Shown here piece by piece: positions 12,893 through 17,727 of a DNA stretch of 64,000 nucleotides; the first letter of the stretch is position 1; each line of letters begins with the position of its first letter. The notes beneath the pieces are model-generated. The model searched no databases, had not been told where the DNA came from, and was given only the letters and a program-made list of their open reading frames with translations. This stretch comes from Methanobacteriota archaeon. GTDB taxonomy: Archaea > Thermoplasmatota > Thermoplasmata > RBG-16-68-12. Both the position numbers and the translations under genes were made by a program. The DNA lies in NCBI GenBank assembly GCA_005878615.1, contig VBLT01000105.1:3414-67413 (forward strand), given 5' to 3'.

Positions 12893-13353
12893 CTAGGGGC
12901 GTCGGAGGGAGGAAAGGAGGCTCGAGAGACCCGGCCGGCCCAACTCCCGCTTCATCTCGCGGGTGAGGGAGTCGTAGTAGGCGACCTGCTGCTCGACTTT
13001 GGCCAACTCGTCGTCGAGGCGGCGACGTTCGTCCGCCAGGCTCTGGAGCGCGTCGAGGATCCGCCGTTCGCGCTGCCGCCACCGTTCCATCTCCCGCTCG
13101 ATGCCGACGGGCCCGGGCAACCGCCTCACCTCCCCGGTACGATCGGGGGGACCGCGGTCCCGGGCTGGGTCCCCATGTGCCGATCGAGGAGGACCCGGCC
13201 GAATTCCAAGATTTTGTTCCGCACCCCCCCGAGTTCTTTCCGGAGGACGGACCGGCGGCGGTCGAGCTGCCGGATTCGCTCGCGGATCCGCTTTCGGCGT
13301 TCCCGCCATTTCTTCTGTTCTTCCAAGGCGAGGAGGACGTGGGAGGAATCCAT
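12893..13353 (-). pseudogene. coiled-coil protein gene interrupted by apparent +1 frameshift at a C6 homopolymer
   Basis: Listed ORFs 13126..13353 and 12893..13309 are both coiled-coil-like but in different frames. Adding one C in the C6 run (minus strand; plus G6 at 13145-13150) fuses them into a ~155-aa protein (MDSSHVLLALEEQKK...AVPPDRTGEVRRLPGP...QVAYYDSLTREMKREL). Confidence 0.4.
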
Positions 13354-13408: not shown

Positions 13409-13690
13409 TCATTCCTCTTTTATCTGGGCGCCCGGAATCACGTACTTGAACAGGTCGAACAGGTTCATCGCCTGCGTCACGAAGTCTTTCGCGATCCCTT
13501 CGCCGGCGTCGAGCCCGAAAACGAGCTGGAGGTCATCGACCTTCCAGACGCTCACCAGATTGGCCACCGTGCGCTGGGTGCCGGCCTCGCTCACGCGAAG
13601 CTTGCCGATCAAGTTCTCACCATCCCGGCTCGTGGAGAGGGAGACCAGGTAACCGCGGCCCTGGAGCTGCTTCTTCGCGATCGTCGTCAT
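13409..13690 (-). CDS. hypothetical small protein
   Basis: 93 aa (MTTIAKKQLQGRGYLVSLSTSRDGENLIGKLRV...). AAGGAGGA Shine-Dalgarno-like sequence 10-14 nt upstream of ATG at 13690. TTTATTA TATA-like box ~50 nt upstream. No family recognised. Confidence 0.45.
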   Translation of the reverse strand: MTTIAKKQLQGRGYLVSLSTSRDGENLIGKLRVSEAGTQRTVANLVSVWKVDDLQLVFGLDAGEGIAKDFVTQAMNLFDLFKYVIPGAQIKEE

Positions 13691-13828
13691 GTCGGATTTG
13701 TCCTCCTTGGCCATCGAGGGTGACTCCGGCGCCGCTATCCCGACCATCGCTAATAAAGACTGTGAGGTGGCACCCATCGCAGCTCCCACCCTGGAGATTT
13801 ATACGGCCCGGCGTGTTCCACCGCCGTC

Positions 13829-13927: not shown

Positions 13928-14236
13928 TTAGTGTGCGACGGTCGCCGTGAGGGCCGCGACCAGCACCGCCACGAGGGCGAGGCCCGCCAACGGGATCAAC
14001 GCGACCCACCGCGGCTCGTATCGCAGGTGCATGTAGTAAGCGACCACCAAGCTCGCCTTCACGGTGGCGAGGATGACGAGGATGATGATCGTCTCCAGGT
14101 GAGGCAAGCCGAGGCTGTACACACTCAATTCGACGAGCGTCACCACCGCGAGGACGACGAACACGACCACATAGGGGCGCTTCTTCAGCTCCTCCACGGC
14201 CCCGGTGGCATGCGTCGCGGTCGCCGTCTCGCTCAT
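13928..14236 (-). CDS. cytochrome c oxidase subunit IV (prokaryotic small subunit)
   Basis: 102 aa with 3 TM helices, immediately downstream of CoxIII on the same strand. Resembles small aa3/caa3 subunit IV proteins. Confidence 0.55.
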   Translation of the reverse strand: MSETATATHATGAVEELKKRPYVVVFVVLAVVTLVELSVYSLGLPHLETIIILVILATVKASLVVAYYMHLRYEPRWVALIPLAGLALVAVLVAALTATVAH

Positions 14237-14244
14237 GCCCTACC

Positions 14245-15084
14245 TCAGATTAGATACACGATCGTGAAGAGGAAGATCCAGACCACATCGACGAAGTGCC
14301 AGTAGAGCCCCGCGAGTTCGACCGCCTCATGGTTCTCCTTCGTGAATCCTCCCTTGAACGCCTTCCTCGTGACGTACGCCATCGCGAGGACGCCGGCGGT
14401 GACGTGCGAGCCGTGAACGCCGGTCTGGGCATAGAATGTGGGACCGTACAGCGGGTTCACTCCCGACCCGGCAGGCGCGTGGGTGAAGGTGAGTCCCTCT
14501 CCAAAGAAGAGGTGTTGGTACTCGAACGCTTGGATGCTGAGGAAGGTGATGCCGAGGAGCAAGGTCGCGAGGAGGAAGAGCCGGAGTTTCGTCTGGTCGC
14601 CGCGTTCGATGGCGGCCAACGCCTCGACCATGGTCAGGCTGCTACAGATCAGGATGAACGTGTTGAGTCCCGTCAACGGCACGTTGAGGATCTGGTTCGG
14701 GGTCGCCCACGGACCTTGGAACGTCGGAAGGCCGACTGTGGCGGTCCGCAGGCGTAGGGTCCAAGAGGCGCCGATGATGGCGGAGAAGAACATGATCTCC
14801 GTCGCCAACATCAGCCACATGCCGAGTTTGCGGGCGCTCACCCGCGGGAGCCGCGACTCGACGGCCGCCGCAAGCCCATAGAAAGGGCTCGAGGGCCGTT
14901 GCAAGTCCTGATGGATCCAGCCTCCGATGCCGCCCGCGAAAATCACGACGCCGGCGAGGAGGAGCGGGATGCTTCCAGATACGATGCCGACGTACGCGAC
15001 GCCCATCCCGACCGCGATGATGACGGGCCAAGGGCTCCCGTGATGCTCCTCCTCGCCTTCTCCGACGGACTCCGGATGCGCCAT
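14245..15084 (-). CDS. cytochrome c oxidase subunit III
   Basis: Only the C-terminal 279 aa of listed ORF 14245..16275 is credible; start ATG at 15084. Canonical C-terminus ELAGLYWHFVDVVWIFLFTIVYLI and 7-TM pattern. Confidence 0.8.
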   Translation of the reverse strand: MAHPESVGEGEEEHHGSPWPVIIAVGMGVAYVGIVSGSIPLLLAGVVIFAGGIGGWIHQDLQRPSSPFYGLAAAVESRLPRVSARKLGMWLMLATEIMFFSAIIGASWTLRLRTATVGLPTFQGPWATPNQILNVPLTGLNTFILICSSLTMVEALAAIERGDQTKLRLFLLATLLLGITFLSIQAFEYQHLFFGEGLTFTHAPAGSGVNPLYGPTFYAQTGVHGSHVTAGVLAMAYVTRKAFKGGFTKENHEAVELAGLYWHFVDVVWIFLFTIVYLI

Positions 15085-15357
15085 CCGCCCGTTCCGGAGC
15101 CGTGGAACATCCAGGCCGCTATAACATCTTCGTTTGTACGCGCAAGGGGTCGTCAGTTCGGACGGAACACCCACGGATCGTGTGCGAGGGTCAGGAACAA
15201 GTCTCGCGACTTCGACCACTCGATGAGCCAATTCGGCACCGCAATTCGCGGTCCCTCGGGTCGAAATCGCATGGAGACTGCGTTTCCTATGAGGGGGATA
15301 AAAGCATCGACGCTCGTGCTGATTTTTATTCCCAGGACATAGAACGCAGGAGGTCGG

Positions 15358-16281
15358 ATGGTGGAATCCGAGGCGCCCACCGAGCGGAGAAAGACCGCAA
15401 GGAACACCGGAAGCGAACATCCGTTGGTAGGGACCAACGAAACGGCTTATACCCGGCCCTCGGATGGGGAGCCCCTCAGGTTTCTCATGCCGAACATCCA
15501 GCGGATGAAGACGAAGCTCGTGCTCCTGGGGGAGAGCGGAGTCGGGAAGACGTCCCTGGTCCGACGGTTCGTCATGAACGAGTACGAAGACGCCTACCTG
15601 CGTACGGTCGGGACTCGGGTCAGCAAGATCGAACTCGTGGTGCCCCATGGAGCGGATGTGGAGGTCCACATGGACATGTCGATCTTCGACATCATGGGCG
15701 AGAAAGGCTTTCGGGACCTTGTCCGGGAGACCTACTACCACGGTGCACAGGCCCTGATGGCGGTCTGCGACCTGACGCGGAAGGAGAGTTTGGACGCGCT
15801 GGCGGATTGGATTTCCGCGGCCCTGGAGGTGACCGGGGACGTGCCCCTCTATCTCGTCGTCAACAAGAAGGATCTCGAACCGCAGCGGGCGATCTCGGAA
15901 GAGGAGATCCGGCGGGCCGCCGAGGTCCACCGTGCGCCGTATGTCCTGACCTCCGCCCGGACCGGCGAATTCGTCGAGGACGTGTTCAATTCCCTCGCCA
16001 TCGAGATGGTCGATCGCGCGTTCCGGCATGAAGAGGAACGCATGGCACAGCGGAGCGTCCGGGACAAGGTGTTGGTGCTGCTGGAGAAACGGGGATCGAT
16101 CGGCTTGAAGAAGAATCAGTTCTTCGATATCCTGCGCGGTGTGCAGTTCGACGAAATCCAGGCCGAGCTCGATCGGCTCGAACGGGAGGGCCTGGTGACG
16201 ATCCTGTGGTACGGGGCCTCCGATTTCGCCGTCACGATCACCCCGCGCGGCGCGAAAGCCGTCCGGCAGGGTCAAGCGTGA
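15358..16281 (+). CDS. Rab/Ras-like small GTPase with N-terminal extension and C-terminal winged-helix-like domain
   Basis: G1 [11 protein letters not shown] (Rab5-like); switch I T in RTVG; G3 D-I-M-G; G4 NKKD; G5 TSAR. ~85-aa C-terminal domain ([42 protein letters not shown]) looks wHTH-like. TTTTTATT box ~30 nt upstream of ATG 15358 supports that start; alternative start 15487. Confidence 0.7.
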   Translation: [307 protein letters not shown]

Positions 16282-16315: not shown

Positions 16316-16921
16316 ATGAAGAAGGTCCAACTGGAGCGTACCTTACAGTCGCTCGACCCGATCGCCGATCCGACGGCCGCCTCGGAACAGTATCCGACGC
16401 CCGCGGGGATCGCGGCTGAGCTCGTCTATTTCGGGGCGGGACGCGGCGATATTGCGGGTCGATCCGTCGTAGACCTGGGGTGCGGGAATGGGATCCTCGC
16501 GATCGCCGCGAAACTCCTAGGCGCCGGTCGGGTGCTGGGAATCGATTCGGATTCAAAAGCCCTCGCGGTCGCCCGCCGCAACTCGGCCCGCGCCGGAGTC
16601 GAGGTGGAATGGGTTCGGAGGACCGTCGACGGATTCCACGAGCCCTTCGATACCGTCGTGATGAATCCTCCGTTCGGGGCCCAGACCCGAAAGGCCGATC
16701 GTCCGTTCCTCGACGCCGCGATCGCCAGCGGCCGGGTGGCCTACACGTTTCTCAATCCAGCGTCGGAGGAATTCGTGCGACGACGGATCGAGGCCTCCGG
16801 AGGTTCGATCACCGATCGCCTCGAGTACGCCTTTCCGATCGCACATCTGTTCCCTTTCCATCGGGACGAGCTCCGGACGATTGCCGTGCTCCTCTTCCGC
16901 TTCGAGGTGGCGAAGGACTAA
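16316..16921 (+). CDS. METTL5-like N6-adenine RNA methyltransferase (COG2263-type)
   Basis: 201 aa. SAM motif I VVDLGCGNGILA; catalytic N-P-P-F motif. Confidence 0.7.
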   Translation: MKKVQLERTLQSLDPIADPTAASEQYPTPAGIAAELVYFGAGRGDIAGRSVVDLGCGNGILAIAAKLLGAGRVLGIDSDSKALAVARRNSARAGVEVEWVRRTVDGFHEPFDTVVMNPPFGAQTRKADRPFLDAAIASGRVAYTFLNPASEEFVRRRIEASGGSITDRLEYAFPIAHLFPFHRDELRTIAVLLFRFEVAKD

Positions 16922-16968: not shown

Positions 16969-17727
16969 ATGGAAGCGAAGATGGTCCTCCCCGGAGACGA
17001 GATCGCCGTCGCGGAGGAGTTTGAACCCGGCGAGGGAACGTACGAGAAGAATGGCCGCGTGTACGCGGCGACCCCGGGCGTCCTCATCCTCGATCCGGCG
17101 AACCGCGTCGCCCGCGTTCGCGCCTTCAATCCTCCGGCCGAATTGAAAGTCGGCGATATCGTGTACGGGACGATCGACGACATCCGGGGGATGATGGCGA
17201 CCGCCACAGTCCTGGCGATCCACGGCCGAACCCGACAGGTCAGCGGGGAAGCCGAAGGGACCATCCACATCTCCAATGTCTCCGAGGACTACACGGAGGA
17301 CATCCACGACAAATTCCGCCTCGGCGACATCATCCGAGCGAAGGTCATCCAAGTCAAGCCGTCCGTCCAACTGACGACGGCCGAGGCGAACCTGGGTGTG
17401 GTCAAGGCGCTCTGTTCCGTCTGTCGCGGACCCCTCGAACTCCGAGGACACGACCTGTACTGTCCGAGAGACGAACGGACCGAGCGAAGGAAGGTCGCCG
17501 CAGACTACGCGGATCTTCGTCTCTTCGTTCCGGCGACGCAACTCGGCGGAGGAACGATCCCGGAGAAACATCGCGGAGGGCGTCCCGAAGGGGCGGACCG
17601 CGGAGGTCGGGACCGAGGCGGACGGGGCGGCGGCCGCGAACGGTTCCGCGATCGCGGCGGAGGCGGTAGGGGTCGCGACAGGCGAGGTGGCGGAGGCCGG
17701 GATCGCGATCGCGACCGTCGCCGGTGA
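16969..17727 (+). CDS. csl4: exosome complex RNA-binding protein Csl4 with C-terminal RGG/RG-rich tail
   Basis: N-terminal beta domain and S1 fold (GDIVYGTI...IHISNVSED...LGDIIRAKVIQV). Zn-ribbon (CSVCRGPLELRGHDLYC). Then ~55-aa tail GGRDRGGRGGGRERFRDRGGGGRGRDRRGGGGRDRDRDRRR. Start ATG at 16969, in frame with ORF 16480. Confidence 0.75.
   Translation: MEAKMVLPGDEIAVAEEFEPGEGTYEKNGRVYAATPGVLILDPANRVARVRAFNPPAELKVGDIVYGTIDDIRGMMATATVLAIHGRTRQVSGEAEGTIHISNVSEDYTEDIHDKFRLGDIIRAKVIQVKPSVQLTTAEANLGVVKALCSVCRGPLELRGHDLYCPRDERTERRKVAADYADLRLFVPATQLGGGTIPEKHRGGRPEGADRGGRDRGGRGGGRERFRDRGGGGRGRDRRGGGGRDRDRDRRR

Follow-up and report, generated by a model that had tools for sequence, protein, structure and literature searches.

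What does a Rab-like GTPase do with a folded module attached to its C-terminus, in an archaeon outside the Asgard group? The question is raised by an open reading frame (ORF) in a 64,000-nucleotide (nt) stretch of contig VBLT01000105.1 (assembly GCA_005878615.1, positions 3,414 to 67,413 of the forward strand), which we call the window. A first-pass annotation, made from the letters alone, read the ORF at 15358..16281 (+) as a Rab5-like small GTPase with a 43-residue N-terminal extension, joined directly to a C-terminal domain resembling a winged helix-turn-helix (wHTH), and suggested that it might regulate the neighbouring cox genes. The ORF of 307 amino acids (aa) is present with the sequence quoted there. 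The host is a soil archaeon of the class Thermoplasmata, and the nearest genomes are Thermoplasmata metagenome-assembled genomes (MAGs), in keeping with the non-Asgard archaeal context that had been proposed.

The protein is a bona fide two-domain small GTPase, conserved in one Thermoplasmata lineage. We read it as a switch worked by GTP that carries its own partner-binding module and may have to do with RNA processing, and consider the case for and against this reading about evenly balanced. Our confidence is much higher for the architecture, the gene model and the operon than for this overall picture, and lower for the link to RNA.

A GTPase domain joined to a winged helix

A search of 5.8 billion proteins (E<=1e-3) returned 812 homologues of the window GTPase, and every one of the 120 listed was at least 61% identical to it. 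A few sources give them a name, either 'Rab family GTPase' or 'GTP-binding protein', and assign them to Thermoplasmata archaea. As sequences they are not novel, since hundreds of family members are already in the databases under generic names. When loci were pooled from genome and metagenome scans, the fusion of a GTPase (G) domain to a winged helix (wH) recurred in 56 distinct loci, which form about seven or more clusters at 50% identity (representatives include P0135, P0136, P0160-P0162, P0170 and P0187). It is retained at about 35-40% identity in locus L015. The ratio of non-synonymous to synonymous substitution rates (dN/dS) is 0.00-0.18 in the wH core and 0.09-0.16 in the G domain, with the linker and the tail looser; on this measure the wH core is under purifying selection as strong as that on the G domain. 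Selection of this kind, and a frame shared by 56 loci from many assemblies, bear out the direct fusion that had been proposed from a single sequence, and the survey of architectures shows that it recurs.

The literature searched, which included surveys of archaeal and prokaryotic small GTPases, held no description of this combination. One survey excluded small GTPases longer than 240 aa (PMC4316618), and archaeal Rab-like proteins have been stated to have short C-termini (PMC4915359). The two-domain architecture is real, conserved and apparently undescribed.

The G domain itself is readily recognised. The Pfam family Ras (PF00071) matches residues 53-217 of the long form at E=3e-32 (111.8 bits, cut-off 21.6); weaker matches to Roc (long-form residues 53-172), Arf (PF00025, E=1e-10) and Gtr1_RagA also fall on the G domain only, and NCBIfam gives only the generic small_GTP domain (TIGR00231, 48.2 bits, cut-off 42.5). 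Our motif and column statistics come from an alignment of 95 homologues, in which G1 (GxxxxGKT), the switch-I threonine, DxxG, NKxD and SA(K/R) are invariant or nearly so and the G3 aspartate is present in 94. The switch-I threonine, DxxG, NKKD and TSAR picked out in the first-pass annotation are thus genuine features of a Ras-superfamily G domain. The position equivalent to Ras Q61 (residue 72, 15700-15702) is glutamine in 82 of the 95 and glutamate in 11, including the window protein and its closest relatives, and intrinsic hydrolysis in this Glu-72 sub-lineage may differ from that of its Gln relatives.

The nearest solved sequences in a phmmer search were Rabs, with Thorarchaeota Rab (7ezb, E=1e-23) ahead of Rab5 (8xtu) and then Rab1, Rab4 and Sec4/Ypt1; RalA came close behind. 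We modelled the full-length protein with AlphaFold2 (AF2), obtaining a predicted local distance difference test score (pLDDT) of 87.7 and a predicted template modelling score (pTM) of 0.71. Foldseek again placed Rab structures on top (target TM-score, TMt, 0.76-0.89), over about 165-187 residues only, and none of the top 50 matches to solved structures spans both the G domain and the wH. The N-terminus of the short form described below enters beta1 directly in this model, without an Arf-type amphipathic helix.

A rough neighbour-joining (NJ) tree, with uncurated reference sequences, joins the Thermoplasmata GTPases, the Chloroflexi matches and one Heimdallarchaeote in a prokaryotic clade. This clade is sister to ThorRab plus eukaryotic Ras, Rab, Rho and Ran and lies apart from Arf1 and MglA, with weak support for the split (50/100). 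The wH-bearing orthologues form one clade (84/100), which the distant L015 joins only in the point estimate (18/100). By these comparisons the G domain belongs to the Ras superfamily and is Rab/Ras-like in the broad archaeal 'Rab-like' or 'Rup' sense. It is neither Arf-like nor MglA-like, and to that extent the first reading stands: the Arf match is far weaker than that to Ras, the G3 aspartate is kept, and Arf1 and MglA are distant in the rough tree.

The label 'Rab5-like' did not survive. The G1 box on which it was based matches Rab5 in the window sequence, whereas the consensus G1 box across the GTPase family is KLALMGEGGVGKTSLIRRFV, so that a Rab5-like P-loop is peculiar to this one sequence. 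Identity to Rab5 in the Foldseek alignments (31-33%) is about that to Rab1, 8, 21, 27 and 30 (26-31%). Rabs are also marked by the signatures RabF1-F5 (IGVDF, KLQIWDTAGQE, RFRSIT, YYRGA and LVYDIT), and the family consensus matches these partially, more nearly for F3-F5 than for F1-F2. There is no C-terminal cysteine for prenylation: the window protein ends AVRQGQA, and the homologues shown likewise have no cysteine motif. Lacking a prenylation motif, the protein departs from Rabs proper, and its RabF motifs agree with theirs only in part.

The C-terminal ~75-90 residues are predicted to fold as alpha-beta-alpha-alpha-beta-beta with a terminal helix, a winged helix according to DSSP in two AF2 models; the domain-only model (pLDDT 83.1) has the same layout as the full-length one. 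The alpha5 helix of the G domain runs on (163-188) into this module and, in the model, makes a rigid link to it. Alpha1 (191-205) is followed by a short beta1, alpha2 (209-215), alpha3 (221-233), the beta2-beta3 hairpin (237-251) and the terminal helix (253-263). Against the Protein Data Bank (PDB), Foldseek matched the wH to MarR, MepR, MftR/PecS, ArsR/SqrR, PadR-like and HxlR-like proteins at query TM-scores (TMq) of 0.65-0.73, with a probability of 1.00 for many wHTH structures; the matches cover 72-100 of 89 residues, flanking helices included. The wHTH-like pattern seen in the letters was therefore well judged, and a canonical hypervariable or disordered C-terminal tail is ruled out by the confident fold and the purifying selection.

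We also tried to assign the wH to a known sequence family and had to reject the attempt, as Pfam, NCBIfam and PDB sequence and profile searches gave scattered sub-threshold wH matches only. No Pfam family reached threshold on the last ~90 residues (the best was DUF6293_C, E=0.09), there was no Pfam MarR match even at E<=10, and fifteen diverse wH members did no better in Pfam; the PDB profile search with the wH gave matches at E>0.2 only. The wH has a MarR/ArsR-class fold without the family signature, and belongs to a restricted family of archaeal proteins for which Pfam has no model.

When 1.84 billion representatives were searched exhaustively with the profile, just 77 proteins with this wH came out; a word-index search with a wH-only profile yielded nine fragments only. 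The 77 form four groups. The G+wH fusion makes up several divergent clusters; a second group consists of stand-alone (75-135 aa) and tandem-wH proteins; a third, of 300-390-aa proteins that start with a wH and continue through a long stretch, acidic or disordered, to a Cys-rich motif at the C-terminus; and a single protein has two copies of the wH and a further C-terminal domain. In P0140-P0145, P0152 and P0138 the acidic region is of low complexity and the motif reads C-x-W-E...C-P...C-x-x-C-x-L-x-x-I-K, possibly a zinc-binding site. Proteins of this type have no Pfam family match, and the genomic context of P0142 was uninformative. The longer '390-aa' fusion paralogues that match lengths had suggested turned out to be tandem separate GTPase genes.

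The gene is shorter than first annotated. Homologues are 268 aa long in 58 of the 120 listed, and the aligned ones start MP(T/N/D)VRRMK, which corresponds to Met44 of the window ORF (ATG 15487). Only P0001, 93% identical, has the sequence of the 43-residue extension in common with the window; other over-called homologues have unrelated N-termini. Inside the extension, ahead of the short-form start, stand a CGAAA resembling a transcription factor B recognition element (BRE) and then CTTATA, which the window shares with eight orthologous loci in an alignment. Taking all the loci fetched, the centre of C[TA]TATA falls 35-41 nt before that start in 40 of 44 distinct upstream regions, and the four without it belong to the most divergent orthologues. 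Compared with the 93%-identical locus L086, the extension has a ratio of non-synonymous to synonymous differences (pN/pS) of 0.66, with differences spread 2/3/4 over the codon positions; the core coding sequence has 0.09 and 14/5/57. The extension, 15358-15486, evolves like non-coding DNA.

From the homologue starts, the internal BRE/TATA and the pN/pS pattern we therefore take the gene to be 15487-16281, encoding 264 aa under its own conserved BRE/TATA promoter, with a predicted transcription start at about 15473-15478. The promoter geometry cited in favour of the long form fails as well, since TTTTTATT (15324-15331) sits in an element that stays with the promoter of a small ORF and cox3 in L007. 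The conserved BRE/TATA, the homologue starts, pN/pS and this tracking of cox3 together rule out a start at 15358 driven by TTTTTATT.

A conserved operon and the neighbouring cox unit

Downstream of the GTPase, on the same strand, come genes for a METTL5-like methyltransferase and the exosome subunit Csl4, a 67-aa ORF and an SHMT-like gene. The methyltransferase has full-length matches to Pyrococcus PH1948 (5e-29), Thermoplasma Ta1320 and human METTL5 (1e-24). The METTL5-like and Csl4 genes follow the GTPase in 50 of the 51 loci that could be assessed, the exception being L015, and the linkage persists at identities as low as about 50%. Between the stop codon of the GTPase and the predicted start of the methyltransferase there are mostly 19-26 nt, and 34 nt in the window, where a GAGG stands 10-13 nt upstream of the methyltransferase ATG. 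As the spacer is short and leaves no room for a separate BRE/TATA, co-transcription of the GTPase gene with the METTL5-like and Csl4 genes is likely. Ten neighbouring genes, from 11.8 to 21.1 kb in the window, were scanned with Pfam, and none has a roadblock domain.

We looked in the literature for a documented operon of Csl4 and a methyltransferase and came upon nothing usable. The pair was reportedly noted as ancient by Koonin and colleagues in 2001, and loci L068 and L082 can be cited for the same view. In L082 (6043-6798), from a more distant Thermoplasmata genome, a GTPase of a different branch lies directly upstream of METTL5-like, Csl4 and SHMT; its C-terminal extension of ~90 aa is unrelated and has no Pfam match. 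The Csl4 of the window has a feature of its own, a C-terminal tail (~17550-17727, +) of ~60 residues rich in Arg, Gly and Asp (...GGRPEGADRGGRDRGGRGGGRERFRDRGGGGRGRDRRGGGGRDRDRDRRR), which falls outside the part covered by the Csl4 model (residues 1-176) and recalls the RGG boxes of eukaryotes.

Upstream, cox3 (14245-15084, -) and cox4 (13928-14236, -) are transcribed away from the GTPase. In 36 of 42 loci cox3 is no more than 3 kb upstream of the GTPase, at 1.4-1.7 kb in L007/L130 and L152. It is absent upstream in L009, L011, L013, L015, L131 and L148, which include all the most divergent orthologues; the upstream gene in L011 is an 854-aa ORF unrelated to cox. The divergent arrangement with coxIII-coxIV that had been pointed out is limited by clade, and the regulation read into it is not supported, given the six loci without cox3, an upstream element that travels with cox, and near-universal partners that lie downstream instead.

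The 400-bp intergenic region, at first taken to be empty, contains a conserved 39-aa ORF on the minus strand, as a seven-locus alignment shows. Its product, MRFRPEGPRIAVPNWLIEWSKSRDLFLTLAHDPWVFRPN, keeps 72-100% identity among loci in which the GTPases have no more than about 61-75%, and a gene is called at this position in L004. Neither Pfam nor NCBIfam matches the product, which shows no obvious transmembrane segment; it may be a small protein associated with the oxidase or else a leader peptide with a regulatory role. A TATA box, GCTTTTATC (-), lies 29 nt upstream of its ATG, and the gene looks leaderless. Beyond it, the conserved element at 15313-15346 is partly palindromic (minus-strand consensus GTTCTAnnTCnTAAGAATnGAAATCAG, with a perfect ATTCTTAAGAAT in L004 and L006) and resembles a binding site for a transcription factor. 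The two units are separated by another gene in L007, with the GTPase 1.4 kb off, and there the element remains with the 39-aa ORF and cox3. We therefore assign 15297-15346 to the cox unit as its control region, tied to the GTPase only by proximity in one sub-clade.

Between the window and L086, 15085-15486 differs by 3-7%, against 31% at the synonymous sites of the GTPase. Rfam found three tRNAs only in the window, so this block corresponds to no known RNA family. The 39-aa ORF and two promoters explain its conservation. No conserved operator near the GTPase promoter itself is visible in the seven-locus alignment.

Two further observations concern the same region. The mechanical 138-aa ORF at 12893-13353 (-) corresponds in orthologous loci to a pair of adjacent genes, some 76 and 75 aa long and called as such in L001, L002, L004 and L086, which with a ~101-aa gene (inside window ORF 13409-13789) make up a conserved small-ORF trio between an IF-2B-like gene and tRNA/cox4; the two window ORFs scanned there gave no family. 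Locus L090 (Ga0209808_1002572) has 97-100% protein identity to the window across the whole cox-GTPase-SHMT block (13.4-19.3 kb), and the window therefore derives from the population found in this JGI metagenome sample. Most other close relatives are JGI metagenome contigs and WNG/SMAG/EA-series Thermoplasmata assemblies.

Table 1. Coordinates, in the window, of the GTPase gene, its parts and the neighbouring features
Feature	Position	Strand	Evidence
Revised gene: Rab-like GTPase with winged helix, 264 aa	15487..16281 (including stop codon)	+	Homologue starts, upstream BRE/TATA, core pN/pS 0.09
43-codon N-terminal extension of the first-pass annotation, most likely untranslated promoter/5' region	15358..15486	+	pN/pS 0.66; holds BRE/TATA of the GTPase gene
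Promoter of the GTPase operon: BRE-like CGAAAC (15438-15443), TATA box CTTATAC (15446-15452)	15438..15452	+	Centre 38 nt before ATG 15487
G domain, residues 1-162 of the short form: G1 GESGVGKT, switch-I T40, G3 DIMGE, G4 NKKD, G5 TSAR	15487..15972	+	Pfam Ras, motif columns, Foldseek
Extended alpha5 helix/linker, residues 163-190, joining G domain to wH	15973..16056	+	AF2 helix 163-188; dN/dS 0.19-0.32
Winged-helix core, residues 191-252: alpha1, beta1, alpha2, alpha3, beta2-beta3 wing with W-x-G-P-x-D-F motif	16057..16242	+	AF2, Foldseek, dN/dS
C-terminal helix and variable tail, residues 253-264	16243..16278	+	AF2 helix 253-263; sequence and length vary among homologues
METTL5-like rRNA N6-adenosine methyltransferase, class I, NPPF motif	16316..16921	+	Full-length PH1948/Ta1320/METTL5 match; downstream in 50/51 loci
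Exosome cap subunit Csl4 with RG-rich C-terminal tail	16984..17727	+	NCBIfam Csl4 E=1.5e-56; synteny in 50/51 loci
Conserved unannotated 39-aa ORF heading the cox3-cox4 unit, outside the GTPase unit	15153..15272	-	72-100% aa identity; always immediately upstream of cox3
Promoter/operator-like region of the 39-aa-ORF/cox3 unit	15297..15346	-	TATA GCTTTTATC at 15297-15305; element 15313-15346 containing TTTTTATT

What the winged helix may bind

The picture that we prefer is of a G domain that would act as a GTP/GDP switch with its output module, the wH, built in. The nucleotide state would be passed from the G domain through the alpha5 helix to the wH. The flanking helices would probably dimerise the protein, by analogy with MarR/ArsR/PadR protomers, and in the dimer the two G domains and two wH domains would communicate. 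The wH would then offer a conserved basic surface (K201, R202, K208, K209 and R217) for a macromolecular partner to bind, and operator DNA is less likely to be that partner than a protein or RNA.

The case against operator DNA comes from the wH itself. In MarR proteins the wing carries a D-x-R motif whose arginine contacts the DNA minor groove. Here the wing is W241-x-G-P-x-D246-F247-T248, with phenylalanine at the position of the MarR arginine (F247 is kept in 93 of 95 sequences) and no basic residues. Helix 3, at the MarR recognition position, has the conserved pattern D222-E/D223-L-Q-x-E227-L...E232-x-E234, each acidic site being at least 93% acidic. As the recognition-position helix is acidic and the wing arginine is replaced by phenylalanine, classical operator binding by the wH looks doubtful and a protein or RNA partner seems the better expectation. 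The same two features, with D246-F247-T248 in place of D-x-R, and the lack of a Pfam MarR match set the wH outside the MarR family. The conserved basic residues lie elsewhere, around the end of alpha1, beta1 and alpha2 (R189, R192, K194, K201, R202, K208, K209 and R217), and the mean net charge is +1.1 for the wH core and about -8 for the G domain. Given the conserved basic patch and the operon partners, our best guess for the partner is RNA or an rRNA-modification or exosome protein, and the most likely field of action is rRNA modification or exosome-linked RNA metabolism.

Several points weigh against this picture. The relative placement of the G domain and the wH rests on one AF2 model with its pTM of 0.71, and dimerisation is proposed by analogy only. 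The conserved gene neighbourhood could be synteny inherited within a rather narrow clade and no sign of function, and the most distant G+wH locus, L015, has no METTL5/Csl4 linkage. No GTPase gene lies beside the stand-alone wH P0150 or the N-terminal-wH protein P0142 in the two contexts inspected. All the top structural neighbours of the wH are DNA-binding regulators, and its core is slightly basic, so that DNA binding is conceivable.

The best of the alternatives is that the wH is purely a dimerisation or protein-adaptor module, with a role like that of COR in Roco proteins or of the roadblock domain in Rag GTPases, serving a process shared with the stand-alone Rab-like paralogues, while the METTL5/Csl4 neighbourhood is inherited synteny without functional meaning. 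We consider this possible but somewhat unlikely. The same genomes do carry 2-7 stand-alone Rab-like GTPases in tandem, 40-50% identical in the G domain, and the occurrence of the wH alone, in tandem and fused to acidic or disordered regions is typical of protein-interaction modules. The acidic recognition-position helix and the retention of the fusion but not the synteny in L015 would fit too. It is harder to square with a linkage kept in all but one of the assessable loci, down to about 50% identity and with operon-like spacing, or with L082, where the place is taken by a GTPase of another lineage with a C-terminal extension of its own, a hint that the position matters. It also leaves the conserved basic wH patch unexplained.

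A one-polypeptide transcription factor switched by GTP, binding operator DNA as a MarR-like dimer and regulating the cox unit, its own operon or both, was the model of the first-pass annotation, and we regard it as improbable. The nearest wH structures are wHTH regulators that bind DNA, and several were solved in complex with it; in its helix-wH-helix layout the module is like a MarR protomer; basic residues are conserved in and around the helix-turn-helix, and the wH core carries about +1 against about -8 for the G domain. A partly palindromic element does lie between the divergent promoters in 36 of 42 loci, and there is a precedent in trans in Group 3 MglA GTPases, which are linked to a receiver-like plus wHTH protein (PMC4316618). 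However, that element stays with cox3 when the GTPase is elsewhere, the cox genes are not adjacent in six of the 42 loci, and the GTPase promoter shows no conserved operator of its own. The helix at the recognition position (D-E-L-Q-x-E-L) and the wing (D-F-T where MarR has D-x-R) speak against it as well, as does the lack of a curated wHTH Pfam family above threshold.

That the protein is a canonical Rab-like GTPase with a disordered hypervariable tail, or that miscalling or misassembly joined two genes, is hardly credible: gene callers do disagree on the N-terminus, but the C-terminus is confidently folded (pLDDT 83-88) and under purifying selection, the frame is contiguous in 56 independent loci from many assemblies, and there is no C-terminal cysteine for prenylation.

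In a bolder reading a Ras-superfamily GTPase would directly gate nucleic-acid binding: a MarR-like helix-wH-helix dimer would alter its geometry, and with it its affinity for RNA or DNA, with the GTP/GDP state of the fused G domains, serving either as a GTP-controlled factor in rRNA m6A modification or exosome function or as a GTP-switched transcription factor. We think this unlikely; if true, it would give a prokaryotic Rab-like ('Rup') GTPase a defined function. No member of the Rup family had been characterised at the time of a 2014 survey (PMC4316618), and the only functional study of a euryarchaeal small GTPase that we found in the literature searched concerns the Arf-like ArvA (PMC10927574).

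Rab/Ras-like GTPases are numerous outside eukaryotes and Asgard archaea, but most are single-domain proteins with no conserved neighbours, and so offer no handle on their partners. This family differs: its presumed output domain is covalently attached and strongly conserved, and the operon that holds the gene, together with those for an rRNA m6A methyltransferase and an exosome subunit, hardly varies. In many Thermoplasmata MAGs there are also rows of 2-7 stand-alone Rab-like GTPase genes in tandem, with about 33-53% identity to the window G domain (L014-L035; L072, 518-6519, seven copies in a row; L078, 2160-7596, six; L027/L028). Judged by these sequences, the Rab-like switches of Thermoplasmata represent a lineage-specific expansion outside the Asgard archaea. 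Thermoplasmata, and not Asgard archaea alone, have thus diversified Rab-like switches through tandem arrays and domain fusions, which bears on how often "eukaryote-like" GTPase signalling was elaborated in archaea. Nearer to hand, the analysis corrects a gene model and reveals an unannotated 39-aa gene and a control region before cox3.

Comparison with known systems

The closest relatives are the archaeal Rab-like or 'Rup' GTPases (Thorarchaeota Rab 7ezb and the proteins of Thermoplasmatales and Aciduliprofundum; PMC4915359, PMC4316618), which give the best sequence and structure matches to the window G domain and likewise have complete G1-G5 motifs, the G3 aspartate and no prenylation cysteine. 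They are single-domain proteins, described as having short C-termini, whereas the window protein has a folded C-terminal module of ~100 aa and lies in an operon with METTL5-like and Csl4. Its likeness to eukaryotic Rab5 and other Rabs consists of the G1 box, partial RabF-like residues (YYHGAQ, FRDL) and the overall fold (TMt 0.84-0.89). Identity to them is only about 31%, the fit to RabF1 and RabF2 is poor, a hypervariable tail and a CC/CxC motif are absent, and the window GTPase is not nested among eukaryotic Rabs in the rough NJ tree.

ArvA (HVO_3014/OapA) is a single-domain Arf-like vesiculating GTPase with an N-terminal amphipathic helix, followed by arvB (DUF2073) and arvC (DUF2072) (PMC10927574). 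Both it and the window protein are Ras-superfamily small GTPases of Euryarchaeota with conserved operon partners. The window protein is Rab/Ras-like, carries a wH fusion and has METTL5-like and Csl4 in place of arvB and arvC; this separation is made from operon content and description only. MglA loses the G3 aspartate and couples to MglB/roadblock (PMC4316618), while the window family keeps the aspartate and has no MglB/roadblock among the neighbours scanned. Roco proteins combine Roc with COR, usually alongside LRR or other repeats. In the window protein, the Pfam Roc match falls on the G domain only, there is no COR or LRR match, and the total length is 264 aa.

The wH superposes on MarR, ArsR and PadR proteins at TMq 0.65-0.73, with the same helix-wHTH-helix order and a ...LE..G(L/I)V...T..G pattern. 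It differs from them in having no Pfam match, an acidic helix 3 and phenylalanine for the wing arginine, and in being fused to a GTPase rather than to a ligand-binding dimerisation domain.

GTPases with attached modules are known in several forms. Era joins a Ras-like G domain to a KH domain, Roco proteins join Roc to the COR dimerisation domain, and Rag/Gtr proteins join a G domain to a roadblock domain. SelB is a translational GTPase whose C-terminal winged helices bind SECIS RNA, so a wH attached to a GTPase can read RNA. These proteins belong to other G-domain families and folds, and the wH showed no detectable homology to the domains of SelB or to KH, COR or roadblock domains, so the resemblance is an analogy that implies no common descent. 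What the window protein may have in common with Era, SelB, Roco and Rag/Gtr is a design, in which the nucleotide state of a G domain controls an attached output or dimerisation domain.

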